A stretch of 47,353 bases of DNA from Gemmatimonadota bacterium (GCA_046758745.1 JBHIAV010000018.1:1-47353), one strand, 5' to 3'; counted from the first letter of the stretch, positions 6,066 to 46,003 are shown. Made by a program: numbers and translations. Notes: generated by a model from the sequence alone, not told the origin.

Positions 6066-9000
6066 TCAGAAGGCCGGCGAGAGGTGGAAGAGCGTGTACC
6101 AGCCCTTCTCGGGTCGGCCGTTCGGGTGCACGAAGTCGATTTCCCCGATGAGGAACCCGAACAGGTTGATCCGCGCCCCGACGCCGTAGCTGGTCACGGG
6201 ATCCCGGTCGATCCCGAGAAAGTCGAACCCCCCGTCCAGGATCCCCTGGTCCCCCGATGTCCACGCCACTCCGGCGTCGAAGAAGGTGAAGAACTCCACC
6301 GGCGGGGCGGCCGGAGAGGGAACGAGGCCGAAGAACCCGAAGACCGGCACGCGAAGCTCGATGTTGGCGACGGCCAGACGGCTTCCGAGCAACTGATCGA
6401 ACACCGGGCACGCCAGAGGATCCTCCTCCGGGGGGTCGCACTCGCTGACCTCGAACGAGCCGTCGTTGTAGCCCCGCACCAGGCTGGGATACCCGATGAA
6501 CAGCTGGCTCAGCCGGCGATCCTCGCCATCGTTCCCGTAGCGACCGAAATGCAGGATGCGCCCCGCCAGCGTGATCGGCCGGGCGGGCATGATGTAGCGT
6601 CGATAGTCGGCGAGCGCGGTGACGTAGTTCAGGCTGCCGAACGTGCCGGTCGCCTGAAACCGATAGCGCTGACCCAGGATCGGCCCGGTCCCGCCGAACA
6701 GCGTGTTGTCGAACACGAGAGCGGTGCTTGCCGTCCCGAGATTCAGGGACGAGATCGTGTCGAAGGGGGTGAGGTCAACCGTCTGCTCGTCCAGCAGCTG
6801 CCCGGTGCGCGGGTCGAAGATCCGCACCTCCCGCTCGGCGGCGAAGTCCACGTTCCGGAACCCCGCCGAGAACTCCACCCGCTGAGACCGGTTGAACGGG
6901 TAGGCGACCCCGAGCGATGCCTCCCGATTGATCTGCCAGAACCGGTCGGCCTGGTCGACGAACACGGTGTCCCCGCCGCTGGTCACCGTGAACCCGCTCG
7001 CGAAGCGGCGCGAGATGATGGGAAGCTGCCCGACCTGAGCGCCCCAGTTCCACCGCGAGCGCTGGTTCTGATACGCGAGGATCCCGGCCGAGGACCGCGC
7101 CACGTCCCCCTCGCCGCCGTTGACCTGGAGGATGGTCAACAGGTTCCGGTTCCCGAGCATGTCGCTGAAGTAGAGCGAGATGCCTCCGGAGATGAACGCT
7201 CCGAACTGATCGGCCCCCACGAAGAGGCTCGGCTGGCCCACGAAGTCGAGCCCGAGCGACGGGCTGTAGTCCGTGCGCTCGAACGTCAGCGTGTCGGCTA
7301 GCCCCAGCCTCGACTCGCGGAGCAGCGGGAGGACCAGCCCGGCCCCCCGGTCCTGCGGAGGAAGCACGGCCGGGCTCACCCCGGCGATCGGGCCGGAGAT
7401 CGGCTCCCCGCGTAGCACTTCGGGCGAGTCGGCCACGTGGAGGTTGTAGTCGCCCTCCTCGTACACGGTGTACACGAGCCGGTCCGTCGCCGCTGCGGAC
7501 GACAGGGCCGGGCTGAGGGAGGTGATCCCGCTCACGCCCGTGAACAGGTTCGTGACGCGGTACAGGTTCCCCCCGGCGAACTCGTAGCGATAGATGTTCG
7601 TGATGCCGCTCACGTCCGTGAGGAAGTACAGGCTCTGGCCGTCCGCCGACCACTGCGGGTTGATGTGCTTGCCGTTGCCGAAGACAGGAAGGGGTTGGAT
7701 CTCACCGGAGACCGCATCGACAAGAGCGAGCCGATAGTTGCCGTAGGCGAGCTCGTTCAGGTCGGTGGCGAAGCGATCGGTCACGAACGCGATGCTCGCG
7801 CCATCCGGGGACCAGGCCGGCTGGAGGTCCGCGTATACGTCGTCGGTCAGGCGGCGCGCATCCCCGCTCTCCACATCCACCACGAACAGATCCGTGACCC
7901 CACCCACCTGGGCCGAGAAGGCGAGGGAGCGCCCGTCCGGTGACCAGGTGGGCGTGAACACTTCCCCGAGTTCCTTCAGTTTGATCTCGCGCTCCGTCTT
8001 CCCGCTCTCCATGTCCAGCACGATGAGCACCGGTTGGCCCTTGCTCACGGCCGCGAAGGCGAATCGCCGCCCGTCGGCGCTCCACGCTCCCGCCGAGTTG
8101 ATGAACTGCAGGCTCTCGAAGTGCGGGTCCGTAGCGTTCTTCGTGAGGCGGCGCTCGATCTTGCCCGTCTCCGCGTCGGCGACGAACATCTCGATGGCGA
8201 AGAGGTCCTTCTCCGACAGGAAGACGATCCTGCTCCCGTCCGGGCTGAGCGCGGGACCTACATTGAGGCCGCCGCTTCCCGTCTCCTTCGAGATGAGGAC
8301 TCGGCCGAAGCGCTCCGCTTCCTCGGTATGCTCCTCGACCGCCGCGTACATCTCGCGGATCGACGCGTGCCATTCCGCCGATATCGAGTCGGGAGACATC
8401 TGGAGCACGGTGGCTATCGCGGTTTCCGCAACACCGGTGGTTCCGGCCAGCTTGAGGATCTTGCCGATCGCCTCATCGCCCCATCGGCCCGCCACGAAAG
8501 CCCAAAACGCCTGGCCGAAACGGTAGGGGAAGAACTTGGGGTTCGAGAGCCTCCGGATCGTCGGGAGCTCACAGCACTCCCGGGCCGCATCGCGGATCCA
8601 CATCGCCGTGTGCGGGTCCACCGGCCCGACGGAGAGGTACTCCGCCATCCCCTCGATGAACCACAGGGGAAGGAAGACGGCCGTGGGGATCCCTGTAAGC
8701 CCCGACCCGCCGGCCGGGTTCTGGCGCGTGATGTCGAACTGGAAGGCGTGCACCAGCTCGTGGCCGAGCACATGGTCCGACTCGGGCAGCGCGCTGGCGA
8801 AGGGCAGGACGATCCGTCGCTTGAACACCTCGGTCACACCGCCTGTGGACTCTCCGATGTTGCCGAAGATGGCGTTGGTCTGCTCGAAGTGCGGGTGGCT
8901 GGCGTACAGGATCAGGGGCTGCCGGCCTCCCAGCTCGTGATCCAGGAGCCGCGAGAGGCGGGCGTACCAGCGCTCCGCCATCCGGCCTGCCAGCTCGGCC

Positions 9001-9191
9001 GCCTTCGCCTCTTCGCCGTAATGGTAGATGTCGAAGTGCTCCGTCTTGAGCACCTCGAAGTCGAAGGACTCGTACTGGACCTTGTTGCGCCCGAAGTACT
9101 GCGCCACGGCAGCCGGAGGTTTCGCCAGGGCGAGCGCGGCCAGCCCGACGGCGATCACCAAGGGAATCCGACCACTCCGGTCACCGCGCAT
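6066..9191 (-). CDS. Secreted gluzincin-like peptidase + TolB/PD40 beta-propeller + Omp85-type barrel protein
   Basis: Signal peptide then QYFGRNKVQY; HELVH and WFIEGMAEY; repeated P.WSPDG; C-terminal LVRGY and FFDAG, terminal F; ATG at 9191 after GGAGGG. Confidence 0.85.
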   Translation of the reverse strand: MRGDRSGRIPLVIAVGLAALALAKPPAAVAQYFGRNKVQYESFDFEVLKTEHFDIYHYGEEAKAAELAGRMAERWYARLSRLLDHELGGRQPLILYASHPHFEQTNAIFGNIGESTGGVTEVFKRRIVLPFASALPESDHVLGHELVHAFQFDITRQNPAGGSGLTGIPTAVFLPLWFIEGMAEYLSVGPVDPHTAMWIRDAARECCELPTIRRLSNPKFFPYRFGQAFWAFVAGRWGDEAIGKILKLAGTTGVAETAIATVLQMSPDSISAEWHASIREMYAAVEEHTEEAERFGRVLISKETGSGGLNVGPALSPDGSRIVFLSEKDLFAIEMFVADAETGKIERRLTKNATDPHFESLQFINSAGAWSADGRRFAFAAVSKGQPVLIVLDMESGKTEREIKLKELGEVFTPTWSPDGRSLAFSAQVGGVTDLFVVDVESGDARRLTDDVYADLQPAWSPDGASIAFVTDRFATDLNELAYGNYRLALVDAVSGEIQPLPVFGNGKHINPQWSADGQSLYFLTDVSGITNIYRYEFAGGNLYRVTNLFTGVSGITSLSPALSSAAATDRLVYTVYEEGDYNLHVADSPEVLRGEPISGPIAGVSPAVLPPQDRGAGLVLPLLRESRLGLADTLTFERTDYSPSLGLDFVGQPSLFVGADQFGAFISGGISLYFSDMLGNRNLLTILQVNGGEGDVARSSAGILAYQNQRSRWNWGAQVGQLPIISRRFASGFTVTSGGDTVFVDQADRFWQINREASLGVAYPFNRSQRVEFSAGFRNVDFAAEREVRIFDPRTGQLLDEQTVDLTPFDTISSLNLGTASTALVFDNTLFGGTGPILGQRYRFQATGTFGSLNYVTALADYRRYIMPARPITLAGRILHFGRYGNDGEDRRLSQLFIGYPSLVRGYNDGSFEVSECDPPEEDPLACPVFDQLLGSRLAVANIELRVPVFGFFGLVPSPAAPPVEFFTFFDAGVAWTSGDQGILDGGFDFLGIDRDPVTSYGVGARINLFGFLIGEIDFVHPNGRPEKGWYTLFHLSPAF

Positions 9192-9299
9192 TTTCCCTCC
9201 GTCGATTCTGCCGTTCACGGTCCCCTGCGTAACTGGTCGTGTACCCGTTGCCGGCAGGCGAGTTTCTGACCCGTCTCTCCCCTTCTCCGAACGCGCGAG

Positions 9300-9500
9300 G
9301 CCGCGAGAGAGTTCTCCCGCTCCCCGCCGAAGCACAGGAAGACGAGAGGGGCGCCGAACACGTGCCTCCCGGTCACGTACCCGCGAGGAAGAACGTCACC
9401 GCGACGAGGAATCCGGTGAGGGCCGCGGCGAGCCCCGCTGCATTCGACCGGGGAGATGGAAGATACGGCCCAAAGAGGACCGGAACCAGCGCGGTGACGC
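9300..9500 (-). pseudogene. Possible frameshifted remnant of a membrane transporter C-terminus (sodium:solute symporter-like); boundaries approximate
   Basis: LVPVLFGPYLP..SNAAGLAAALTGFLVAVTFFLAG continues in another frame as YVTGRHVFGAPLVFLCF; no start seen. Confidence 0.3.
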
Positions 9501-32876: not shown

Positions 32877-34052
32877 TTACATGCTCTCGAACCAGGTTCC
32901 CGGCATCTCGGAGTACTGGAGCGGGCCGGAGGTCATCCACTGCCTCGCGTCCCTCACGTTGCACGAGTTGTACTTGATCGTCTTGTTCCCGTTGCCGAGG
33001 TCGCTCACATTTGTCGACTCGCCAAGCAGGAGATTGAGTCCCGTGACCAGCGCGCCCTCGATCTCCGAGTAGCCGTTGGACCTATAGGCACCGCCGACGA
33101 GTATCAACCCATCCCAGTGCAGGGGGTCGAGGTTATTCTGAACCCATTGATCCTTGTTGTTGTTGCCGGTAAACGTCAAATCTCCTCGCACGATGAGCGT
33201 TCCCCGCCCGTTCAACGGACCCGTGGCTTGTGTTTGTTCTACCTCGTACACGGAGGACGGATTGTCAATGTAGATCACCGGCCACTCGTCGGCGGGAAGG
33301 CTGCCGAAGTCCGGCCAGCTGTTGGGCGGGATCGTGTAGTCGGGGGTGACCGCCGTGCCGTCCACGATCCCCTCCCAGTCGATGCCGCTGTCCTGTAGGA
33401 GCTGGAGCCCAGACTTCGAGTCGTCGATATTGGGATCCCCCTTCGGTACCAGATCCTCCCCTTTCCCTCCGCCTTTCTTCCCACCACCCCCCCCTCCGGA
33501 CTGCGTGTAGCCACCGGGCGGCACGGTCACGCCGGCCACCGAGGGCGCGGGCGCGCTGGGGCAATCAGCCGGGGTTGCATCATCGTGCCCCGAGATGATG
33601 CCCGAGGTCCCGTCCTTGAGGATACCCGCGCTCGACGTGAAGGCGGCTAGGGGCGAGAACAGGCCGGGGCTGGCGATGGCGATGGTGCGCACGGTCCGGG
33701 TGGACACGCCCCCCACGGGGGGGGCGTAGGTGCCGACCGAGGTGATCTGGTACAGCGTCTGGCCGACGGCGACGCTGAGGAACGGCTCGCCCCACACGGT
33801 GGCCGTGCCGTTGGTGAAGGCGTACGTGAGCGTGTCGGTCCCCGGAGCCTGGCTCCCGAGGTACTCGTAGAGGCCGGCGTTCGCCACCTGGTCGGCGTAG
33901 GCGCTCGCCTGGTGGTTGCCGCTTACCCGGTAGTCTGCGTCCGACAGGAGGAAACCGGCGGTGGCCAACGCCGTCAGCCCTACCAACACCAGCAGTGATA
34001 CGAGCAGGGCGAAGCCGCCCTCGCGGCTCGGCTGTGTCTCCCGGTCAATCAT
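32877..34052 (-). CDS. PilX-like type IV minor pilin
   Basis: Class III signal REGG|FALLVSLLVLVGLTALA without Glu5, then A..VANAGL; C-terminal GTLIVRGDL and W.GLILVGG repeats. Confidence 0.8.
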   Translation of the reverse strand: MIDRETQPSREGGFALLVSLLVLVGLTALATAGFLLSDADYRVSGNHQASAYADQVANAGLYEYLGSQAPGTDTLTYAFTNGTATVWGEPFLSVAVGQTLYQITSVGTYAPPVGGVSTRTVRTIAIASPGLFSPLAAFTSSAGILKDGTSGIISGHDDATPADCPSAPAPSVAGVTVPPGGYTQSGGGGGGKKGGGKGEDLVPKGDPNIDDSKSGLQLLQDSGIDWEGIVDGTAVTPDYTIPPNSWPDFGSLPADEWPVIYIDNPSSVYEVEQTQATGPLNGRGTLIVRGDLTFTGNNNKDQWVQNNLDPLHWDGLILVGGAYRSNGYSEIEGALVTGLNLLLGESTNVSDLGNGNKTIKYNSCNVRDARQWMTSGPLQYSEMPGTWFESM

Positions 34053-34467
34053 CGTGTCGTCTCTCGCTCTCTAGTTGGCGCTGCCCTGTTGGCAGGTTGC
34101 CCCTCCCTCCAATTTGCGGGCGCCCTCACTTGCCACGGGGGGACGGCCGCCAAGCCCGCGGTGGTCCAAAGCCGGATGCCGGATCTTCAACGGGCAACCG
34201 AGGGACCGCGCTCTCGCGTGCACGCTAGGGCTCGTTACGTGTTGTCCGATCAATGCTTATTCCCTGGCTCGTCCGTCTCCGTGTGGCGCGAAGCCCACAC
34301 GGGTCCGCCGGCCTTGCACGGCACATCGCCGCACAACATCGCGAAATGCAAAGAGTGCCCGAAGCGGCACCCGACAGGGTCACCGGTACGCCCTGGTCCG
34401 AGGGAGCGCGACCGAGGAAACGGGCGATCCCTTCGGCCGAATCCGATGGCCCGCGTGCGCCACGATC

Positions 34468-36702
34468 CTATCGCCAGGCCGGCCAGGCTCCCTCCCAGGC
34501 GAGGGAGAGGGCTGTCTCCCCATCGGTGAGTCCACGAGCAGCATCGATCCGGAGTTCGCCGGCGGCTCCGAATCCAGCCAATCGAAGGCCCACGCCCGCG
34601 TCGATGAGCAGCTCGGACGGGCCGGTGGCCGGTGAGCGCTTCCAGGCACGAGCGGCGTCGACGAAGACACCCAGCCCAAACGCGAGAGGCGGCGCGATCG
34701 GCCACCAGGCGTCGCCGCGCACTCCCCCGTACGCCACGATCCTACCGAACACCTCTCCCTGAATGACGCCCGACTCCAGAAGCGGATGGGCTCGGAGAAG
34801 GACGTCCCGCCCGGACCCCGTTCCGGCCCCGGGCCAGATGGAACGAGGCGCGGAAGGCGTGGCGAGGAGCACGCCCCCCTTCGCACCCGCGACCCAACCG
34901 TTGCGGAGACGAGCGGACCGACCTGCCAGCCCGAACTCGACGGCGGCGAAGGTCTCCTCCACTCCCAGCCCCTTCCAGCCCTCCCCCTCGAGCCGCACCG
35001 ACATCAGATCGCCGGCGGTCCGGAGCTCCAGGGAGGTGGACACGGCCACATAGCGTCCCCGCTCCGTCCAGCTATCTGCCGCGGCGCCGCCTTCCCACCG
35101 GACGTCCGCTCCGACCCAGCGAGCAAAGGAGATCCCTCCGCGGTACCGGGTCTCCTGGCGAATCGCTTCCCCGGAGGCGTCCGGGGCCGGTTCGCTTTCG
35201 CCCACACGGTACGACTCGCTCTGCCAGAGTCCCTCGACACGCCAAAGCCCCTTCAACCCGAATGCCCCCGGGACAGCCAGCTCCAGGCCGACCCGGGGCC
35301 GTCGCTCCGCCCACCGCCAGGAGCCGCTCCACAGCTCGCCCGCTCCCGAGGGCCCCGCCAGCCGCAAAACCACCTCGCGCGCGGGCAGGGAGCGCAGTGC
35401 GGTGGCCGCCAGCCCGAGAGGGGGATCGAGAAACACCGGACGTTCCACGACGGCGATCTCGACGTCGGCAACCCGCGGCCGCGTAGGAAGATAGGAGACG
35501 CGTCCGGCGGAGAAGGCGGGGAGCGAGCGAAGCCGTCGCTCCGTTCGCCGGAGAAGCGCCGGAGTTAGCAGGGCGTGCGCCGGTACCGCCAGGTGCTCCT
35601 GCACCGAACGGTAGCGTGTGCGCCGCAGACCGTACACGCGGACGAGCTCCGCTTGCGGCTCCCCCGCGCGGTTCCAGGCCTCGAGGGCCTCCACCTCCTT
35701 GCCCTGCATGAACCTGCTCGCTCCGAGGATTCGGGACGCGTGTTCGTCACCTGGCGTCAAACGCAGGGCGCGCGCGGCCAATCGCTCGGCCTCCTCCCAC
35801 CGCTTCCCCCGGAACCGGAGTCCCGCGAGCTCCCGCCACGGGGCCGCCGTGTGGGGACAGCCGGAAGCCGCGGCCCTGAGCACCGAATCCGCAGAAGAGG
35901 GATCCCGCCGGCGAGCCAGCTCTACACCTGCCCGAACCAACTCGGCGCAGTCGGCGGACGATGACAGAAGAGGCGCCGGCCCAACCGCCGGATCTGCCCG
36001 GCCGCCTGCCGGCTCAGCCGATTCGGGCGGGCGGGGTCGACCTCCGAGGGATCGCCAGCCAGAGGCCGATCGTTCCACGGCCTGGTGCGGCTGTTCGGCT
36101 GCCACACGGAGAGGCGGAAGGATGAGAAGCGACCAGCGCTCGGAAGGGACCCACATGCGCTCGAACTTCTCGGCCGCCAGCGTCATGAAGGGCGCCCACG
36201 CCGGATCGTGCAGAAGGACGGTGCTTCCTCGAACAGCGACGATCACGACATAGTGGAATCGGCCGGGACGCACCTCCAGCAGGACGATGACCGGCCGGCC
36301 GCGACTCACATGATGCGCGAGCTCGGCGATGTCACCCCGGAACGCCAGCGCCCGCCATCCCCTCCTTCTCACCTCACGGGCAAGGCTCTGTGTGGCGATT
36401 CCTCGCGTCTCCCCGCCGAGCAGGGAAGCGAACTCCGTGGGATCGGGGCCTGTACCGGCCCAGTACCGCATGGCCATCGCTGCGGCCGCGGCCCCGCACA
36501 GGGCCTCGCTTTGCGGTAGGTACGGTACATCGAGAATCCGAAGTGCCTCGTGCAGCGTGGCTGAGAACGCCGGGCCCGCCTCAGGAGCTGTCTGCGGCGT
36601 GCGAGCCGCAGCGGGGGTCGGCATCAGGGATGCCTGCACGAGCAGGAGGGCCGCGAACCACGCCTGCACCGGCCATGCTCGAGACGAGCGGCCGCTACGC
36701 AA
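34468..36702 (-). CDS. C39-like cysteine peptidase (PA2778-like) fused to TPR, POTRA and Omp85-type barrel
   Basis: Signal peptide; VPYLPQSEALCGAA (Cys), FHYVV (His), LHDP (Asp); TPR helices; POTRA-like VYGLRRT...RRL..LPAF...IAVVER; barrel LLRAHP, FVDAA, DAGVGLR. Confidence 0.82.
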   Translation of the reverse strand: MRSGRSSRAWPVQAWFAALLLVQASLMPTPAAARTPQTAPEAGPAFSATLHEALRILDVPYLPQSEALCGAAAAAMAMRYWAGTGPDPTEFASLLGGETRGIATQSLAREVRRRGWRALAFRGDIAELAHHVSRGRPVIVLLEVRPGRFHYVVIVAVRGSTVLLHDPAWAPFMTLAAEKFERMWVPSERWSLLILPPLRVAAEQPHQAVERSASGWRSLGGRPRPPESAEPAGGRADPAVGPAPLLSSSADCAELVRAGVELARRRDPSSADSVLRAAASGCPHTAAPWRELAGLRFRGKRWEEAERLAARALRLTPGDEHASRILGASRFMQGKEVEALEAWNRAGEPQAELVRVYGLRRTRYRSVQEHLAVPAHALLTPALLRRTERRLRSLPAFSAGRVSYLPTRPRVADVEIAVVERPVFLDPPLGLAATALRSLPAREVVLRLAGPSGAGELWSGSWRWAERRPRVGLELAVPGAFGLKGLWRVEGLWQSESYRVGESEPAPDASGEAIRQETRYRGGISFARWVGADVRWEGGAAADSWTERGRYVAVSTSLELRTAGDLMSVRLEGEGWKGLGVEETFAAVEFGLAGRSARLRNGWVAGAKGGVLLATPSAPRSIWPGAGTGSGRDVLLRAHPLLESGVIQGEVFGRIVAYGGVRGDAWWPIAPPLAFGLGVFVDAARAWKRSPATGPSELLIDAGVGLRLAGFGAAGELRIDAARGLTDGETALSLAWEGAWPAWR

Positions 36703-37084
36703 CGAGGATGAGGATCAGGACGAGAAGGCCGATGATGATCGCAGTGGTGGAGATGACGACCTTCTTCTCGCCACCCGCGAGGACCGCCTCCACCCGACTA
36801 GCCTCGGAGGCCACCCGCCGCAGCTCTTGGCCCTCGAGGGTGCCAACGGCGTCCTCCGCACGGGCAAGATCAATCCCGTAGCGTTCGGCCACCGCGCTCA
36901 CCTCGGTACGCCCCAGGGTCTGCCGGATCGCCTCTCGATCCGCTTCGCTCTCGGATGCCTTCTGAGCAACGGCGCTCTGAAGCTCCGACTCCTCAAGGAC
37001 GTGTGCCTGCTGAGCCGGCAGCAGGCTGGGGAGCGCACCTACCGCCAGGAGTCCGATTGCCGCACTCGCCACAGGTAACTGCAT
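36695..37084 (-). CDS. PA2779-like exported precursor with AGG motif and hydrophobic tail
   Basis: GGAGG RBS, ATG 37084; signal peptide; LEGQEL...LAGG followed by EKKVVISTTAIIIGLLVLILILVA; overlaps the peptidase start. Confidence 0.8.
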   Translation of the reverse strand: MQLPVASAAIGLLAVGALPSLLPAQQAHVLEESELQSAVAQKASESEADREAIRQTLGRTEVSAVAERYGIDLARAEDAVGTLEGQELRRVASEASRVEAVLAGGEKKVVISTTAIIIGLLVLILILVA

Positions 37085-37193
37085 TTCACTCCTCCAGAGA
37101 CTCGGGGGGAATCGTGTAACGAACCCGGGGCTCTCCAAACCACGAGCACGCCGCGCAACGCCGGCCGCCACGGGTGCAACTCCCGTACGCTGC

Positions 37194-37625
37194 TTGGCAG
37201 CGCACGGATCTATCCCTGTAAGTGACAGCGCCCAGAAGCGTTACACAGATTCGGAATGGCTCTCTGACCTGCCGGTGCGTTCTGTAGGCCCGCCAGACCC
37301 TGCCGGCGATCTGCAAAGTTTGCGGAAGACGTGGCCGACGAGGGAGAGCCAGGGCAGCGGCACGTCTCCGCTCCGGGCCGAGCCGCGCAAGAAGGGTCAA
37401 AGCCCCGAAGAGATCGAGCGCGAGAGCGAGGCGGGGCATCGCGCGCCCGAGTTGCGCCTGCCCGACGTAGCGTGCGATCGGCTACATGTGCTCGGACGGG
37501 AGCTGTACACCGATGATGGCCAGCCATATGGGGATGGCTGCCACGTGATGCTCACCGCCCAAGAGGGTGGAGATCGGTGGACTTACTGCGCCGACGGCAG
37601 GTTCGGGTTCACGGGATCGACATAA
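37194..37625 (+). CDS. Hypothetical ORF or remnant
   Basis: Open frame only; no family recognised. Confidence 0.2.
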   Translation: MAAHGSIPVSDSAQKRYTDSEWLSDLPVRSVGPPDPAGDLQSLRKTWPTRESQGSGTSPLRAEPRKKGQSPEEIERESEAGHRAPELRLPDVACDRLHVLGRELYTDDGQPYGDGCHVMLTAQEGGDRWTYCADGRFGFTGST

Positions 37626-37679
37626 TCGCGGATGGGCGGGAGAGCTGGGCCTTGCCCGAGGGCGGGAAACAGGCCGTTC

Positions 37680-38222
37680 TTATTCAACTCGCTCCCAGAA
37701 GTCGGTGAACTCCCCTTCAATGGTCGCGGTGATCTTGTCGCCCTCGAAGATCACCGTAGGCTCTTGATAGAGCGGAAAGACAACCTCGATGAGTCCGTTT
37801 TCTGTCGTCACAGGCGACGAGCCACTTGGGCCGGACAGATCGTAGCTTAGCCCGCCGCCGCCGATCTCATCGTTCACCATGCGGTAGATGCTCGTCTCGC
37901 TGTACTCCGTAGCGGTCAGCGCGTAGTTGGCGATGTAGGAAACGGAGTAACGCCGACCTTCGGCATCGCTCACCATGATGTTGAAGTTTCTGTAGTTCTT
38001 CGTGTAGGTGATTAGTCCTACCACATCTGGCGGCTCTTGCGTGGTACCGTCCGGCAACTCGCGCGAGACCAGGCGGTACGTGCCCTCGATGCTGAACGAT
38101 TCGCCCTGTTCCGTTGTTGCTGCCTCTTCGGCGGTGGATTGCTGCTCTTCAGCAGGAGCACACGCGGCAAGGACCATTGTGGCAGAAAGCACCAAGCCGA
38201 CAAGCGGGTTGCGCGGCATCAT
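37680..38222 (-). CDS. Lipoprotein with lipocalin-like domain
   Basis: GAGG RBS; LAAC lipobox; IEGTYRLVS start and terminal WERV. Confidence 0.75.
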   Translation of the reverse strand: MMPRNPLVGLVLSATMVLAACAPAEEQQSTAEEAATTEQGESFSIEGTYRLVSRELPDGTTQEPPDVVGLITYTKNYRNFNIMVSDAEGRRYSVSYIANYALTATEYSETSIYRMVNDEIGGGGLSYDLSGPSGSSPVTTENGLIEVVFPLYQEPTVIFEGDKITATIEGEFTDFWERVE

Positions 38223-38498: not shown

Positions 38499-40772
38499 TT
38501 ATCGGTTGTCATCGTGCCGCCTACCGTACCGAGCGTTGATCTCCCGAATCGCCTCAGGATCTCCGACGATGCTCAGCCGGTCGCCCTCTCGAAGTATCGT
38601 GTCGCCGTGAGGGACCAGAATGACCGGGTGGCGGTGTATCAGGGCGACCAGGCTAGCCTGGTGGAGGTCGGCTTCACGCAGGGGGCGACCGATGAGGACG
38701 GCCGAAGGCGTGTTCTGTTGTAGTCGCAGCGAAAGAAACCGCTCGTTTCGCAGAATGGCCTCTTTGAGGTGCTGCTCGTCCGGAACAGACAGCCACTCGT
38801 CCATGAAGTCCTCTTGGGCCACCCGCGCCACGATCTCTGCCAGAATTCGCAAGTGGTTTCCCGGGCTTGGCTCAGGGCTGACCAGGAAAAAAACGGCGTG
38901 AATCCGCTCCCCGTGGGTCCGGGCGAATGTGAACTGGTCGCCCACCGTCACCTGAATGCCCACCAGTGAGCGCATGATCACCATGGCAGGCCTGTTGACT
39001 TCGTGAAGGCGGAGATGCGGAAGCGCCGCTCCGTGTGAGGCCACCGTGGTCCCCGCCCGTATTCCGTGCAGAAACCCTGTGGCGAGCCGTTCCGCGCTGA
39101 CCGGCAGGCGCTGAGAGAGCAGCACCGCTGCTGTCCGAGCTGCGTCCGCAAATGTGGCTTCGGCTGGAAGGTCGACGGGGAAGGCTCCCGCAATGACCTC
39201 ATCGAACGGATCGACCGCGGGCAAACCCTCCTCCTTGAGGAATCCCCGCAGCTCCAGATCCGCACTCTCGAAGCGCCGCTGTCCGAGGCGATCGAACCAG
39301 TGGAAGAGGGCGCCATCGCGTGCGACCCGCTCACGCGCATAGTAGAAGTACCAGGTCAAGCAAACCGCGACCAGTCCGATCGAGAACAGAATGGGCATCA
39401 AGCCCATCTCGGCGATAAGCAGAAACGGAACTAGCAGCCCCACCACTTGAAAGCCGGGATAGAGGGGCGAGCGAAAACCCGGATCGTACGCTCTGAGACC
39501 GCTCTCCCGCATGACGATGACGGCGAGGTTCATCAGCGCGAAGATCAGCAGCAGGAATGCACTGGCCAGCTTCGCAATGCTCACGACATCCAACACTACG
39601 ATGAAAAAGATCATCGACGCTGCCGTCGTGGCGATCGCCAGCGTCGGGGTCTTGAAGCGCCCGACATTCGCGAAGCTGGGCGATATGAGCTGGTCGCGCG
39701 CCATGGCCAGTGGATAGCGAGACGCCGCCAATATTCCCGCGTTTGCAGACGCCGACAGCCCGGCCAGAGCGGGCAGGACAACCAAAGCAAGAGCCACGTG
39801 GCGCGGCACCCAGTGGAAGAAGGCAGTCCCCGCCGTCGCGAATGGTGTCAGATCGCCATGCAAGGCGTCCGGATCGATCGCCGCCACCATCAGGTAGACG
39901 CCGAACAAGTAGATCAGGGAGGCCGTCAGCAAGCCGAGGAAGATTCCAAGCGGGATGGTCCGGTCCGGAGTACGAACCTCTTCGGAAACGCTGGCCACCT
40001 TCAAGGGTCCCGCGAACGAGATGAAGACGAGGCCCATCGTCGCGACCAGGCCCTCGACGCCCAACGGCATGAAAGGCGTGAAACTTCCTTTCATCATCCT
40101 GGAGGCTGGTTGCCCGAAGATGCTGAAGAGTCCCTGCATGACGAACAGCGCCAGGAAGCCCAGCACGACGGCAACCAGGTACCGCTGGAGGCGGCTCGAC
40201 TCCTTCGCTCCGACAACGTTCACCAGTGCGAATATCAGCGTCAGCACGACCGCCAGGGTCTTGATCGGAAGATGCACGAACAGGACCAGGTACGCCCCCA
40301 TGCCGATGAGCGCGAACGCGCTCTTGAGCACCAGTACCAGCCAAGTACCGATGCCGCCGACAGTGCCCACCATCGGCCCAAGGCTTCGATCGAGGAAATA
40401 GTAGGTGCCGCCCGCCCGGGGCATGGCCGTGGAAAGTTCCGCGACACTGAGCGCGGCGGGCAGGACAAGAAAACCGGAAAGGAGGTATGCCAGCACGACG
40501 GAAGGGCCGGCGTTGGCGGCAGCGAGACCGGGAAGCAGAAAGAAGCCGGAGCTGAGCATCGGCCCAAGGCCGATGACGTAGACATCGAAGAGGGTGAGCT
40601 CTTTCCTGAGCTGTTGACGGCCGCTGGATGCCACGGCGCCTCGCTGTCGCGGAATGGAGGAGGTTCGGCCGACGATCGTTGCGGCGGCGAGACCGCGGAC
40701 CGGAGGCTCCGCCACGGCCTGCTTGGGTGGCCGCTGGTCGGCAGCCTGCTTCTCCGCCGCTCCGAGCCGCAC
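38499..40772 (-). CDS. APC-family amino acid/cation permease fused to PTS EIIA-like and RCK_C (TrkA-C) domains
   Basis: SSGFFLLPG, AELSTAMPRAGG, EEV, ASRYP.AMARD; AALPHLR and HLRILA (EIIA); VPHGDTILREGDRL (RCK_C). Confidence 0.9.
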   Translation of the reverse strand: MRLGAAEKQAADQRPPKQAVAEPPVRGLAAATIVGRTSSIPRQRGAVASSGRQQLRKELTLFDVYVIGLGPMLSSGFFLLPGLAAANAGPSVVLAYLLSGFLVLPAALSVAELSTAMPRAGGTYYFLDRSLGPMVGTVGGIGTWLVLVLKSAFALIGMGAYLVLFVHLPIKTLAVVLTLIFALVNVVGAKESSRLQRYLVAVVLGFLALFVMQGLFSIFGQPASRMMKGSFTPFMPLGVEGLVATMGLVFISFAGPLKVASVSEEVRTPDRTIPLGIFLGLLTASLIYLFGVYLMVAAIDPDALHGDLTPFATAGTAFFHWVPRHVALALVVLPALAGLSASANAGILAASRYPLAMARDQLISPSFANVGRFKTPTLAIATTAASMIFFIVVLDVVSIAKLASAFLLLIFALMNLAVIVMRESGLRAYDPGFRSPLYPGFQVVGLLVPFLLIAEMGLMPILFSIGLVAVCLTWYFYYARERVARDGALFHWFDRLGQRRFESADLELRGFLKEEGLPAVDPFDEVIAGAFPVDLPAEATFADAARTAAVLLSQRLPVSAERLATGFLHGIRAGTTVASHGAALPHLRLHEVNRPAMVIMRSLVGIQVTVGDQFTFARTHGERIHAVFFLVSPEPSPGNHLRILAEIVARVAQEDFMDEWLSVPDEQHLKEAILRNERFLSLRLQQNTPSAVLIGRPLREADLHQASLVALIHRHPVILVPHGDTILREGDRLSIVGDPEAIREINARYGRRHDDNR

Positions 40773-43274: not shown

Positions 43275-44147
43275 TCACGACTGGCCGACGGGACCTTCCG
43301 AATGGGCCGAAGCGGCGGTGAGACGCCGCCGCACCCATCGCTCCCCGGGCCTCCATGCAGCCAGCACCGCGATCGTCAGCGTCAGCAGCGCCAGATGCTG
43401 CGTGAGGGCCGATGTGGCGAACAGGGCGGTGGGACGGTTTCCGAGGGCGTGCAATCCCACCACGACCCACAAGTTTCGGGTGATGAGGAAGACGCCGGCC
43501 AGCGCCGCGCCCGCTGCAAACACCCCCAGCAGATCCGGCGCGAAGCCGGCCAAGGGCATCCCGGCCACGATCCGGTTGGGGATGTGGGAGAGGGAGAAGA
43601 CCGCCTGCGAGGCCACCAGCGCCGCGGTGATCAGTCCCGTTCGGCTGGAGATGAGGCGGCGAAATCTGCGGGCGAGCTGCGGAAGGAAGAAGCCGCGGAA
43701 GATCGTCTCCTCCACCAGCGCGTTCCCCAGGAGCTGGGCCAGGAGAGCGCCCAGCATGACGCTCGCCCCCCGGCTTGACCAGTCGCCGTTCCACGCCAGA
43801 ACGTGACCGCGGGCCAGCTCGGACGCGGCGATGAGGAGCTGTACCGATGCCCACACTCCCAGCACGATCGCGATGGCGGGGAAGAGCGCCCGGCGATCCC
43901 AGTAGACGTCCACCAGCCCGAGCCGTCCCACCCGCAGGATGCCCAGGCCGACCACCAGAACGAACATCAGGCCGGACCCGACGAGCGTCGCACGGACCCA
44001 TCCGTGGGTCGCCCGGGCAAGTGTCTCCGGCCAAGGAAGCGAATACAGGACGTTGTTGAGCAGGATGCTGGTGAGGACGACGAGGGCGGCGACGACCGCC
44101 AGCGTCCCCCACGAGACCTCGGGGCCTTTCAGGAGGAAGCGGTACAC
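43275..44147 (-). CDS. CPBP/Abi (CAAX) intramembrane metalloprotease
   Basis: EETIFRG, FSLSH, LHALGN; multiple TM helices; GTG at 44147 inside track ORF 43275..45416. Confidence 0.88.
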   Translation of the reverse strand: MYRFLLKGPEVSWGTLAVVAALVVLTSILLNNVLYSLPWPETLARATHGWVRATLVGSGLMFVLVVGLGILRVGRLGLVDVYWDRRALFPAIAIVLGVWASVQLLIAASELARGHVLAWNGDWSSRGASVMLGALLAQLLGNALVEETIFRGFFLPQLARRFRRLISSRTGLITAALVASQAVFSLSHIPNRIVAGMPLAGFAPDLLGVFAAGAALAGVFLITRNLWVVVGLHALGNRPTALFATSALTQHLALLTLTIAVLAAWRPGERWVRRRLTAASAHSEGPVGQS

Positions 44148-44185
44148 CGCCCCCTGACCGGGGGCGGGCCTGTTCTCCGCCGAGC

Positions 44186-45337
44186 TCAGGCGGTCCCTGC
44201 CCGCACCTGCCGGCTGCCCAGAAGGTTGAGCTTGTACCTTCTGATGGTATCCGCCGTGATGACCGAGCCGGTCGGACTCCGAAAGAAGAGCGCGTCGAAG
44301 GGACACTGCACGATGCACGCACCGCATTGCACGCATCGCTCGATCCCCGGAAGCGTCGCCACGTCTCGCTCCCGATCGACCTCGAAGACGTCCGTGGGAC
44401 ACACCTCTTCGCAGCAGCCGACTCCCCGGCACCGCTCCGCGGCCAGAGCGATCCGTAGCCGCCGGTCCGCGTGGAGCCCGCTCTTGAACACAGGGGTGCT
44501 CCCGGTCAGATCGAGGCTGAGGATCAGCACCACGACGAGCGAGCCAAGCCCCCAGCGGAAGGCCGGCGACCAGGAGAGCTCGCCGACCAGGAGCAGGTAG
44601 CCGACCAGTCCCACCATGAAGAGGCCCCACAGGAGGAGCGGGGCGCCCTGCTCGCCGAAGTCGAAGAAGACGAACCCGACGCTCTTCCCCGTGCGCCGCA
44701 GGCGTCCCTGGTAGAGAGGAAAGCTCAGGAACATGACAAGGGAGATCCCCCACACGAGGGCTACGAGCGGGAGCACTCCCTGCCTCCAGAAGGGCAGGGC
44801 CACGACGCCGAGGAGGGAGAGGGGAAAGGCCCAGGCCACCGCCATCTCCAGCCGCTGCCGCCGCGCGAAGGTCACCGTGCGCATCTCCGGGCTCTTCACG
44901 AGTCCCGCGTCCAGGAAGGCGGGGATCGACCGTGCCTCCACCGGTCCCCAGACGACTTTCCAGCGCGTCTTCCGGTGGATGACCCTTCCCTCGATCCCGG
45001 TGGCGGCGAGCTGCGGGAGGATCACCTGCCGATGGTCGACCAGGTCCTCGATGCCGCTGGTTTTCAGGACCGAAACCACGTCGTGGTTCGTCAGCAGCCC
45101 GCCCGTTGCCGCGCACCAGACGTTGACCCCGCGGCTGTTCGCGACGAGCAGGTAGGCGTCGATCCCCTGCAGCGCGCGCTTCAAACGCTCCACCGTAAGC
45201 CAGAAGTTGCATGTCAGGAAGACCGGCGAGGTCGGGCCGGGATCCCCGATCGTGATGATGCCCGTCCTGCACGGAAAGGGCAGGACGCGCAGAAGGGTCT
45301 GGAGCGCGGTGATGGCGAAGAAGCGGAGACGGCTCAT
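44186..45337 (-). CDS. HgcAB-like fusion: corrinoid-binding domain + TM helices + ferredoxin
   Basis: SPVFLTCNF.LT, cap helix GVNVWCAATGG (NVWCAATGG at 45098-45124), ILPQL.ATG, WGPVEA; ~4-5 TM helices; CRGVGCCEEVCP and CVQCGACIVQCP. Confidence 0.92.
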   Translation of the reverse strand: MSRLRFFAITALQTLLRVLPFPCRTGIITIGDPGPTSPVFLTCNFWLTVERLKRALQGIDAYLLVANSRGVNVWCAATGGLLTNHDVVSVLKTSGIEDLVDHRQVILPQLAATGIEGRVIHRKTRWKVVWGPVEARSIPAFLDAGLVKSPEMRTVTFARRQRLEMAVAWAFPLSLLGVVALPFWRQGVLPLVALVWGISLVMFLSFPLYQGRLRRTGKSVGFVFFDFGEQGAPLLLWGLFMVGLVGYLLLVGELSWSPAFRWGLGSLVVVLILSLDLTGSTPVFKSGLHADRRLRIALAAERCRGVGCCEEVCPTDVFEVDRERDVATLPGIERCVQCGACIVQCPFDALFFRSPTGSVITADTIRRYKLNLLGSRQVRAGTA

Positions 45338-45340
45338 TCC

Positions 45341-46003
45341 TCACGCTCCACCAGGCTTTCGAGCCACCAACTCGCAGAGCCCCCCCAGCGGGCCCGCCCT
45401 GATCGATTCCACGCACAGGCCGGCATCGCTCACTCTGGCGGGCAGGTTGGCGATGGGACGCGTGGTCTGCTGTGTAACGATGTACGCAAGGGCCGCGAGG
45501 GGAACCCGGATCGCGAGCTGCGCGATGCGGCCGAGAGCGCTGTGCGCCCTTACCTCATCCGCCACGAGAAGCAGGCCGCCGGGCTTCAGGATGCGGGCCG
45601 CCTGCCTCAGCGCGTAGCTGAGCTCGTCCTCGCTCAGCTCCGAGAAGCACAGTCCGCTCGCCACCGCATCGTAGCTCCCGCCTTGCTCTTCGTCCAGCTC
45701 GGCCACACCTACCTCCGCCAGCTCGACGCAGTCGGCGAGGCCGGCAGCCGACACCCGCCGGCGTGCGATCTCGAGCATCTCCGGGTTGACGTCGATCCCC
45801 TTCACCGTCGCTCCCCGCAAGGCGATGGGAAGCGTCAGCGCACCGGTCCCGCAGCCCACGTCGAGCACCCTGTATCCGAGCTCGACGCGGCTCGCAAGGC
45901 GACGGTACGCCTTTCCGAGGCGCCCCAGGGCAAGAAGACGAATGCCCAGATCGTACCGGCGCGGCGCGGACTCCAGGATCCGCATGAGGACGTAGGTGCT
46001 CAC
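45341..46003 (-). CDS. cpaM: Class I SAM-dependent methyltransferase (corrinoid protein-associated, CpaM-like)
   Basis: VLDVGCGTG, ILKPGG; N-terminal STYVLMRILESAP.RYD.GI, which I recall as the CpaM family signature; 3 nt upstream of the HgcAB-like gene. Confidence 0.75.
   Translation of the reverse strand: MSTYVLMRILESAPRRYDLGIRLLALGRLGKAYRRLASRVELGYRVLDVGCGTGALTLPIALRGATVKGIDVNPEMLEIARRRVSAAGLADCVELAEVGVAELDEEQGGSYDAVASGLCFSELSEDELSYALRQAARILKPGGLLLVADEVRAHSALGRIAQLAIRVPLAALAYIVTQQTTRPIANLPARVSDAGLCVESIRAGPLGGLCELVARKPGGA

Follow-up and report, generated by a model that had tools for sequence, protein, structure and literature searches.

The gene pair and its two products

The DNA analysed here is a stretch of 47,353 nt from a Gemmatimonadota bacterium (GCA_046758745.1 JBHIAV010000018.1:1-47353), called the window below, and the subject is a pair of adjacent genes on its minus strand (Table 1). 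The upstream gene encodes a small protein of 129 amino acids (aa) akin to the PA2779/DUF6627 family. The downstream gene, whose TTG start codon overlaps the TAG stop of its neighbour by 8 nt, encodes a protein of 744 aa in which a C39 papain-like peptidase, tetratricopeptide (TPR)-like repeats, a single POTRA and an Omp85-type beta-barrel follow one another in one chain. A preliminary description of the locus had placed at 34468-37084 a 129-aa protein with LEGQEL...LAGG and a 24-residue hydrophobic tail, whose gene overlaps the start of such a fusion, and all of this is present. What the pair could do, at about even odds in our judgement, is to bring together a periplasm-facing, outer-membrane-anchored protease and a dedicated partner which it docks and cuts after a Gly-Gly (GG), parting the partner's helical domain from its tail.

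The peptidase domain of the fusion protein is matched above the curated cut-offs by two Pfam C39 models, PF13529 (1.4e-11, 45.6 bits, cut-off 24) and PF03412 (1.5e-7, 31.7 bits, cut-off 22), and the same models match all 54 aligned members of the fusion family. The triad, described as intact from the start, is so: over 54 homologues Cys69 is conserved at 0.98 and both His150 and Asp166 at 1.0, accompanied by Gln64 at 0.98, four residues whose positions in the domain point to catalytic roles. Compared with solved structures, the fusion-family profile matches the peptidase domain of ComA (9.2e-7), PCAT1 (4.7e-4) and a LahT-type protease (5.1e-4). Because these nearest solved relatives are true double-glycine peptidases, and because the four residues are so strictly kept, the C39 enzyme is likely active, as far as sequence allows one to judge. 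The profile also matches TPR proteins, the BamA of B. thetaiotaomicron (3.6e-5) and TamA (4.4e-4), in keeping with the rest of the chain.

An AlphaFold2 (AF2) model of the fusion protein, built from 54 sequences, reached a mean predicted local distance difference test (pLDDT) of 86.3 and a predicted TM-score of 0.81. In it the TPRs and the one POTRA-like domain that had been proposed are recovered, the former as six helices and the latter as a beta-alpha-alpha-beta-beta unit. Standard family models see little of either: the Pfam TPR hits on the fusion protein all lie under the curated cut-offs, and no Pfam POTRA model matched it or the 54 family members. Two cysteines of the TPR part, Cys252 and Cys282, are conserved at 0.98, a pair that fits an oxidising compartment.

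The Omp85-like barrel of the C-terminus, which the preliminary description had offered as its own touchstone, folds as proposed. Foldseek with the model ranks TamA and BamA first among 241 matches at E <= 0.001, with TamA (8us2_A, E 1.4e-12) at the top. VIA-align superposes the model on D. radiodurans BamA (8xnb_A; Z 22.4, root-mean-square deviation (rmsd) 3.7, 289 residues aligned), on E. coli TamA (4c00; Z 22.2, rmsd 5.3, 348 aligned, residues 343-741 of the model covering 159-577 of the chain, its POTRA3 and barrel), on the TamA barrel (4n74; Z 22.1, rmsd 3.7, 276 of 314 aligned) and on FhaC (Z 20.0, rmsd 4.5, 333 aligned). By these TamA and BamA matches the model has both the fold and the POTRA of the Omp85 superfamily. 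The 16 strands expected for that fold, predicted beforehand together with the POTRA, came out as 15 by DSSP, all between residues 443 and 737, and residues 428-441 are modelled as helix though aligned with the start of the BamA barrel. The standard models mostly miss this barrel: PF01103 matches 16 of the 54 family members at E <= 0.01, gives no match at E <= 1 to the fusion protein of this window, and does not count it among its 4 matches in the own genome. Invariant in the 54 sequences are Arg637, carried by the long barrel loop 615-652 (LLRAHPLL), and Phe680-x-Asp682, which are candidate equivalents of the loop-6 Arg motif and the strand-13 (F/G)xDxG motif of Omp85 proteins.

The small protein is recognised by NF033919 (PA2779_fam) with 36.1 bits (E 6.1e-9), below the curated cut-off of 40, and by Pfam DUF6627 (PF20332) with 14.7 bits (E 0.034), below the cut-off of 27 bits. 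A word-index search returned 196 homologues of 103-154 aa, one close homologue being called 'PA2779 family protein' at NCBI, and its structural neighbours in a protein atlas include PA2779/DUF6627 clusters at TM-scores of 0.67-0.80. When all NCBIfam models were scanned at E <= 1, only PA2779_fam and RIFIN matched, and no GlyGly-CTERM model did. The sequence, the homologues and the AF2 model agree on the PA2779-type layout of a putative signal peptide, a helical domain and a C-terminal hydrophobic helix. The model (50 sequences, pLDDT 76.3) has helices at 25-57, 60-69, 73-80, 85-103 and 110-128, with the GG in an exposed loop, 104-109, directly after the 19-residue helix 85-103; a fold search with it against solved structures gave 0 matches at E <= 0.001. 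Sec export of this protein would follow from its hydrophobic N-terminus and from its homologues, which begin with MR, a hydrophobic stretch and A-x-A; the n-region in this window is without a basic residue.

Around the GG, the 50 aligned homologues of the small protein keep Leu at -4 in 50/50, Ala at -3 in 44/50, Gly at -2 in 49/50, Gly at -1 in 50/50 and Gln at +1 in 42/50. Behind LEGQEL...LAGG comes the hydrophobic tail of 24 residues, EKKVVISTTAIIIGLLVLILILVA, which in the 50 close homologues is nearly fixed as V-T-I-S-T-T followed by a run of I/L/V (STT and run at 44-50/50). This protein ends in ...LILVA, with no basic residue after the tail, and the tail could well anchor it in a membrane. 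It does not look like a bacteriocin-type double-glycine precursor, having a Sec-type N-terminus (by its sequence features), its GG at 104-105 of 129 residues and a peptidase without ABC domains.

Spread of the pair and predicted binding

Full-length relatives of the fusion protein number 229 (409-1302 aa, 36-46% identity over at least 90% of the query), and relatives are encoded in 366 stretches, taking one genome per species; the family is thus present in at least 366 species-level genomes. With these 229 homologues and the 196 of the small protein, the pair goes well beyond a chance arrangement. Most records belong to Acidobacteriota/Vicinamibacterales, with six from Candidatus Eisenbacteria, one from Krumholzibacteriia and one from Gemmatimonadaceae, so that some Eisenbacteria and Gemmatimonadota-like lineages stand beside the bulk of Acidobacteriota. 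The POTRA-barrel part used alone as query found 743 cluster representatives at E <= 0.001, and among the 150 listed of these 743 most are 630-760 aa long with the barrel at the C-terminus.

The genomic surroundings were compared in the best 80 of the 366 confirmed relatives. A PA2779-like gene lies beside the fusion gene, on the same strand, in all 80 of these related loci, directly upstream in 77 and downstream in three (L060, L066 and L077), and besides the pair no real cluster was found in more than 18 of the 80 by an all-against-all clustering of open reading frames (ORFs), one polluted by shadow ORFs of high-GC DNA. By gene content, the small gene and the fusion gene are the conserved unit, a dedicated two-gene system as had been supposed. 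The GG is kept in 79 of the 80 loci, the remaining one being frameshifted and not evaluable, whilst the tail drifts among I, L and V across this wider set and varies in length.

Each gene occurs once in the own genome, which is 87% complete. When 40 related genomes were searched with the small-protein model, it matched 8 of the 24 from the same family and none of the 16 from the sister family, which makes the system an accessory one of patchy occurrence; over the 41 genomes NF033919 matches in 9, and 2 of these 9 reach its cut-off. A tblastn search of the C39 domain against plasmids gave no match. In two loci from long-read metagenome-assembled genomes (L005, 2365-4998; L021, 2500-4944) partner and peptidase share one frame without a stop. 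We rejected these as natural fusions and read them as frameshift or assembly errors, since the hydrophobic tail of L021 sits in another frame. Shorter relatives also occur, of about 470 aa (TPR-POTRA-barrel) and of 160-200 aa (C39 alone). As split systems they do not convince: they are probably gene-call fragments, because an internal Met, with no signal peptide, begins most of the 470-aa ones, and two short ones all but coincide with the beginning of a longer protein.

Binding of the two products was modelled with ESMFold2, using residues 34-744 of the fusion protein and 25-129 of the partner, in three runs and with 3 controls. The interface score ipSAE is 0.66 (0.66, 0.65 and 0.66 in the single runs) against 0.06 for the best control; a calibration, rough only because own alignments were used, has 116 of 157 solved complexes attaining this mark, as against 2 of 215 mismatched pairs. 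At least 80% of the contacts are common to the runs, and the pLDDT of the partner is at least 71. On the fusion side the predicted interface comprises TPR residues 257-332, residues 357-426 of the POTRA region, among them 357-360 and 399-422, and a barrel turn at 671-672; on the partner side it takes in 26-43, 72-90 and 127, the last of which touches that turn. The co-fold supports docking of the partner's helical domain on a TPR-POTRA platform, and with the contacts at the N-terminal helical domain it would be the soluble domain, rather than the hydrophobic tail, that is held by the machine. The preliminary description had expected the AGG in the active site, and in this it was not borne out: the confident contacts are those at TPR and POTRA, and the GG was not placed in the C39 domain.

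Relatives of the pair and what it could do

The nearest named relatives are PA2778 and PA2779 (NF033920/NF033919; DUF6627), which share with the present genes a homologous C39 domain (E 9.4e-20), a homologous small partner (E 6.1e-9) and adjacent pairing; the neighbouring PA2779-family gene that goes with the PA2778 family is found in the window and in all 80 related loci. The kinship suggested by the preliminary description is real, and it is sub-threshold on both sides, the small protein falling short as given above and the fusion protein scoring 71.1 bits against a cut-off of 150. The latter covers positions 2-166 of the 255 of the PA2778 model, which describes C39 and a following region with no POTRA or barrel, whereas the fusion has some 400 extra residues with POTRA and Omp85 barrel. 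That family is itself named yet uncharacterised. Our literature searches on PA2778, PA2779 and DUF6627 met incidental mentions only, namely PA2778 as an untested candidate in a transposon-directed insertion sequencing (TraDIS) screen around a type VI secretion system (T6SS; 10.1101/733030), PA2779 as a neighbour of bswR (PMC3985676) and a PA2779-family gene in a list of candidate strong promoters (PMC10155442). Full-text searches found no description of a C39-POTRA-Omp85 fusion.

The best structural analogy is PlpD, of the patatin-like Omp85 proteins formerly called type Vd, in which an enzyme, one POTRA and a 16-strand Omp85 barrel form one chain (PMC11116518). The likeness to the type Vd layout, drawn at the outset, stands for the domain order enzyme-POTRA-barrel and is weakened as a frame, for the patatin domain of PlpD is reported to be periplasmic, close to the POTRA, and surface translocation of the passenger is disputed even for PlpD (PMC11116518). 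Unlike PlpD, the fusion carries a C39 cysteine peptidase and TPRs in place of a patatin lipase, and has a dedicated small partner; no patatin match was found in it or in the 54 family members, so that the passenger that marks type Vd is missing, and the best structural matches of its barrel are TamA and BamA, among rows that include no PlpD barrel structure. The Omp85 scaffold is known for inserting and translocating proteins and PlpD shows it loaded with a periplasmic enzyme; to this the family adds a cysteine protease of the Gly-Gly type, a docking module and a dedicated partner. Metalloprotease-, WD40- and patatin-Omp85 subfamilies, and no C39 one, are named in the introduction of PMC11116518, and the main text of the 2014 survey of the superfamily (PMC4104836) is free of the terms TPR, peptidase, C39 and tetratricopeptide, while its supplementary domain-profile tables could hold the architecture. 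The window has a second domain-fused Omp85 protein, a 1089-aa ORF at 6066-9335 on the minus strand, which ends in an Omp85 domain (PF01103, 32.1 bits, 6177-6950) and has beta-propeller repeats of PD40/WD40-like type (5.5e-30); it resembles the WD40-Omp85 subfamily of that survey.

As a precedent in function, the closest case in which a C39 peptidase of the periplasm works alongside an outer-membrane barrel is FapD/FapF of the functional amyloid of Pseudomonas, where a Sec-exported, catalytically required periplasmic C39 enzyme accompanies an outer-membrane beta-barrel and GG are the suspected cleavage sites (PMC5557850). There, unlike here, peptidase and barrel are two different chains, FapF has 12 strands, forms trimers and resembles an autotransporter rather than an Omp85 protein, and the cargo consists of amyloid subunits (PMC5557850); no Fap genes were seen near the pair, either in the window or in the neighbour clustering of the related loci. 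The C39 domains of ABC exporters (ComA, PCAT1, LahT-type) belong to the same peptidase family by profile, and the helix followed by L-x-G-G is likewise shared. They differ in that the fusion would act outside the cytoplasm and has no ABC part, and in that the 'leader' has a putative Sec signal and about 80 residues, with the GG only 24 residues from the C-terminus and another hydrophobic spacing. A short motif and a C-terminal hydrophobic helix removed by a partner protease are also the hallmark of GlyGly-CTERM/rhombosortase, PEP-CTERM/exosortase and LPXTG/sortase, and it is this logic that we propose for the pair, with the differences that here there is one substrate per protease, the protease is a soluble-domain C39 rather than an intramembrane enzyme, and no basic residues follow the hydrophobic helix.

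The reading that we favour runs as follows. Both proteins would work outside the cytoplasm, as was first suggested and as their signal-peptide-like N-termini, the POTRA and Omp85 barrel and the conserved Cys252/Cys282 pair indicate. The large one would be exported and sit with its barrel in the outer membrane, POTRA, TPR and C39 facing the periplasm, as reported for PlpD, whilst the small one, exported by Sec, would stay anchored in the inner membrane through the hydrophobic helix at its C-terminus. Docking of the partner's helical domain is predicted at the TPR groove and the POTRA; the C39 domain, on a flexible tether of about 45 residues, could then cut after Leu-Ala-Gly-Gly, in the loop before the tail. 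This would part the helical domain, of some 80 residues, from the 24-residue membrane tail, and the domain might stay on the barrel protein or pass to it, the barrel either merely anchoring the enzyme or also moving the released piece. We read the pair as an active enzyme cutting at the GG because the GG is kept in 79 of the 80 loci, the catalytic set is conserved and the nearest solved relatives are double-glycine peptidases. If so, the unstudied PA2778/PA2779 pair gains a concrete and testable mechanism, docking on TPR-POTRA and cutting at LAGG, and the present genes become a two-gene model for asking what a one-POTRA Omp85 barrel does when fused to an enzyme and whether C39 peptidases serve as sorting enzymes of the envelope.

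Several observations weigh against this. Our literature searches met no report of cleavage for any member of the family, and the signal peptides and the topology of both proteins are read from sequence. In the co-fold no residue of the partner, GG104-105 included, lies confidently on the C39 domain; conservation is no higher at the predicted interface residues than elsewhere in their domains (p 0.27 and 0.17); and over 77 gene pairs the top 25 contact pairs do not covary in excess (p 0.39, an underpowered comparison). Reaching an inner-membrane substrate from an outer-membrane anchor is geometrically demanding, given the span of the periplasm. Before the GG the hydrophobic positions are -4, -8, -11, -15 and -18, a partial fit to the classical leader, which has them at -4, -7, -12 and -15, and the invariant GG could be a structural hinge instead of a cleavage site.

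Several alternatives depart from the favoured reading. In a version close to the preliminary description, the roughly 80 N-terminal residues could be a long leader that docks on TPR-POTRA so that C39 frees the 24-residue peptide as the product, which the barrel then inserts into the outer membrane or exports, and this we consider unlikely. It would keep the polarity of the classical double-glycine systems, whose product lies C-terminal to the GG (see the FapD paper on C39 and GG, PMC5557850). The predicted interface is as one would have it for a leader docked on a recognition domain, with partner residue 127 meeting the barrel in the model, and the tail, besides being the most conserved part among close homologues, lacks the cluster of basic residues by which a C-terminal anchor is usually fixed in the inner membrane. 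A helix of 20 residues of I, L and V, however, should stop transfer in SecYEG and remain in the inner membrane, far from the barrel, and its drift in composition and length over the 80 loci is what one would sooner expect of an anchor than of a specific effector; those loci have no conserved immunity or modification gene close by, and we know of no Omp85 protein that handles alpha-helical peptides. A little less probable still is that the pair is a self-contained route by which a protein leaves the inner membrane and reaches the outer one or the cell surface, TPR-POTRA capturing the helical domain, C39 cutting after Gly-Gly and the one-POTRA barrel holding or translocating what is released; along such a route C39 might even act like a sortase, its thioester intermediate transferring the freshly exposed C-terminal Gly to some acceptor close to the outer membrane. 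Were this true, the pair would represent a novel type of Omp85-based sorting or secretion system in which the processing enzyme is built in. The partner may, on the other hand, be left mostly uncut. It would then, through TPR-POTRA, tie the inner membrane to the outer-membrane protein until C39 severs this link on a signal, or be a docked inhibitor or regulator of the barrel protein. The confidently predicted binding, which involves neither active site nor GG, leans this way, as does the accessory distribution of the system, and a PA2779-family gene of Pseudomonas stutzeri listed beside OmpA and flagellin among candidate strong constitutive promoters (PMC10155442) hints that the product is abundant and of a structural type. 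Against this, the complete conservation of catalytic set and GG speaks for cutting as the central function, the 80 loci have no sensor or regulator gene conserved next to the pair, and by a rough estimate a partner domain of about 80 residues with TPR-POTRA may fall short of the span of the periplasm; we hold these regulatory or tethering roles for doubtful, to the same degree as the release of a tail peptide.

Two further explanations rank lower still. The original type Vd model (introduction of PMC11116518) has the order enzyme-POTRA-barrel, and the disordered linker between C39 and TPR in the AF2 model could, in its 45 residues, thread the barrel, so that C39 is displayed or released at the surface to act on external targets, the small protein being a periplasmic chaperone, a plug or an immunity factor. 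Also in its favour, the TraDIS screen names PA2778 as one candidate that could be a T6SS toxin, with the small gene downstream of it as protection, without following this up (10.1101/733030). We find this improbable: the prototype PlpD keeps its enzyme in the periplasm (PMC11116518), the conserved GG partner would be an inner-membrane or periplasmic protein, the constant pairing is better explained by an enzyme and a partner in one compartment, and shorter C39 and C39-TPR relatives exist that lack a barrel, many of them perhaps gene-call fragments. The GG and helix of the tail could also be a GlyGly-CTERM-type signal, cut by a rhombosortase of the same genome whilst C39 has another substrate. 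A rhombosortase-like gene does lie on another contig of the own genome (C85:4789-5253, minus strand, locus L087; TIGR03902, 88.7 bits against a cut-off of 84), and the tail has the layout of GG followed by a hydrophobic stretch. The basic cluster of the tripartite GlyGly-CTERM signal (PMC6219818) is absent from it, however, and no model of that family matched in the NCBIfam scan given above; rhombosortase substrates are moreover many to one protease, yet the small protein is single-copy and always beside the C39 gene. Hardly any weight can be given to this explanation.

Coordinates, flanking signals and other genes

The features of the pair are collected in Table 1. The hairpin listed there, some 100 nt past the stop codon of the fusion gene, is weak evidence for a terminator, as the consensus scan returned 1 site where chance alone would give 1.5. 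Among sequencing runs, four DNA runs of one study contain the stretch, and no RNA run was listed. A sigma-70 promoter scan of 34000-37700 gave 0 sites. The sigma-54 pattern TGGCACN5TTGCW, allowed up to 2 mismatches, matches 13 times in the window against 11.3 expected, and 0 times in 37085-37400.

Table 1. Features of the gene pair, in window coordinates (residue numbers refer to the respective protein)
Feature	Coordinates	Strand	Basis
Small partner gene, 129 aa, PA2779/DUF6627-like	36695..37084	-	ORF and translation; NF033919 36.1 bits; 196 homologues; atlas neighbours
Putative Sec signal peptide of small protein, residues 1-24, h-region AAIGLLAVGAL, ...LPA/QQ	37013..37084	-	sequence and homologues
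Four-helix domain (periplasmic in the proposed reading), residues 25-103	36776..37012	-	AF2 helices; predicted docking surface 26-43 and 72-90
Gly104-Gly105, proposed cleavage site (LAGG)	36770..36775	-	conservation; loop 104-109 of model
Hydrophobic tail, residues 106-129 (EKKVV-ISTT-AIIIGLLVLILILVA), helix 110-128	36698..36769	-	sequence, model, column counts
Fusion gene, 744 aa from TTG	34468..36702	-	ORF and translation; 229 full-length homologues
Putative signal peptide of fusion protein, residues 1-33 (RSGRSSR, WFAALLLVQASL, AAA/R)	36604..36702	-	sequence; AF2 helix 10-26, then disorder
C39 papain-like peptidase domain, residues 57-196	36115..36534	-	PF13529, PF03412, profile hits, conservation
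Codons of catalytic positions Cys69, His150, Asp166	36496-36498, 36253-36255, 36205-36207	-	
Disordered Pro/Ala/Gly/Ser/Arg-rich linker, residues 200-247	35962..36105	-	pLDDT <50 at 203-223, 229-237, 239-247
TPR-like helical repeats, residues 248-344	35671..35961	-	six modelled helices and profile matches to TPR proteins; predicted partner groove
Single POTRA, beta-alpha-alpha-beta-beta, residues 350-420	35443..35655	-	secondary structure; aligns with TamA POTRA3
Omp85-type beta-barrel, residues 421-744	34471..35442	-	Foldseek and VIA-align to TamA/BamA/FhaC; profile hits
Shine-Dalgarno-like GGAGGAG, 4 nt 5' of the small gene's ATG at 37084	37089..37095	-	direct sequence reading
Terminator-like hairpin	34353..34372	-	consensus scan

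Around the pair the window encodes MetE, succinate dehydrogenase, M16 peptidases, a histidine kinase, transporters and a PilX-like protein, and no link to the pair is visible in these surrounding genes. Just downstream, and not conserved with the pair, lies an ORF of 391 aa (32877-34052, minus strand) with a pilin-like N-terminus (GFALLVSLLVLVGL...) and a Gly/Lys-rich stretch, for which no Pfam model matched at E <= 1e-5. Two other minus-strand ORFs were noted: a 713-aa ORF at 43275-45416 joins a long N-terminal part without a family match to a C-terminal Rce1-like CAAX protease domain (3.3e-15), and a 757-aa protein at 38499-40772 unites an amino-acid permease with PTS EIIA-2 and TrkA-C domains, an unusual regulatory tail for a transporter.

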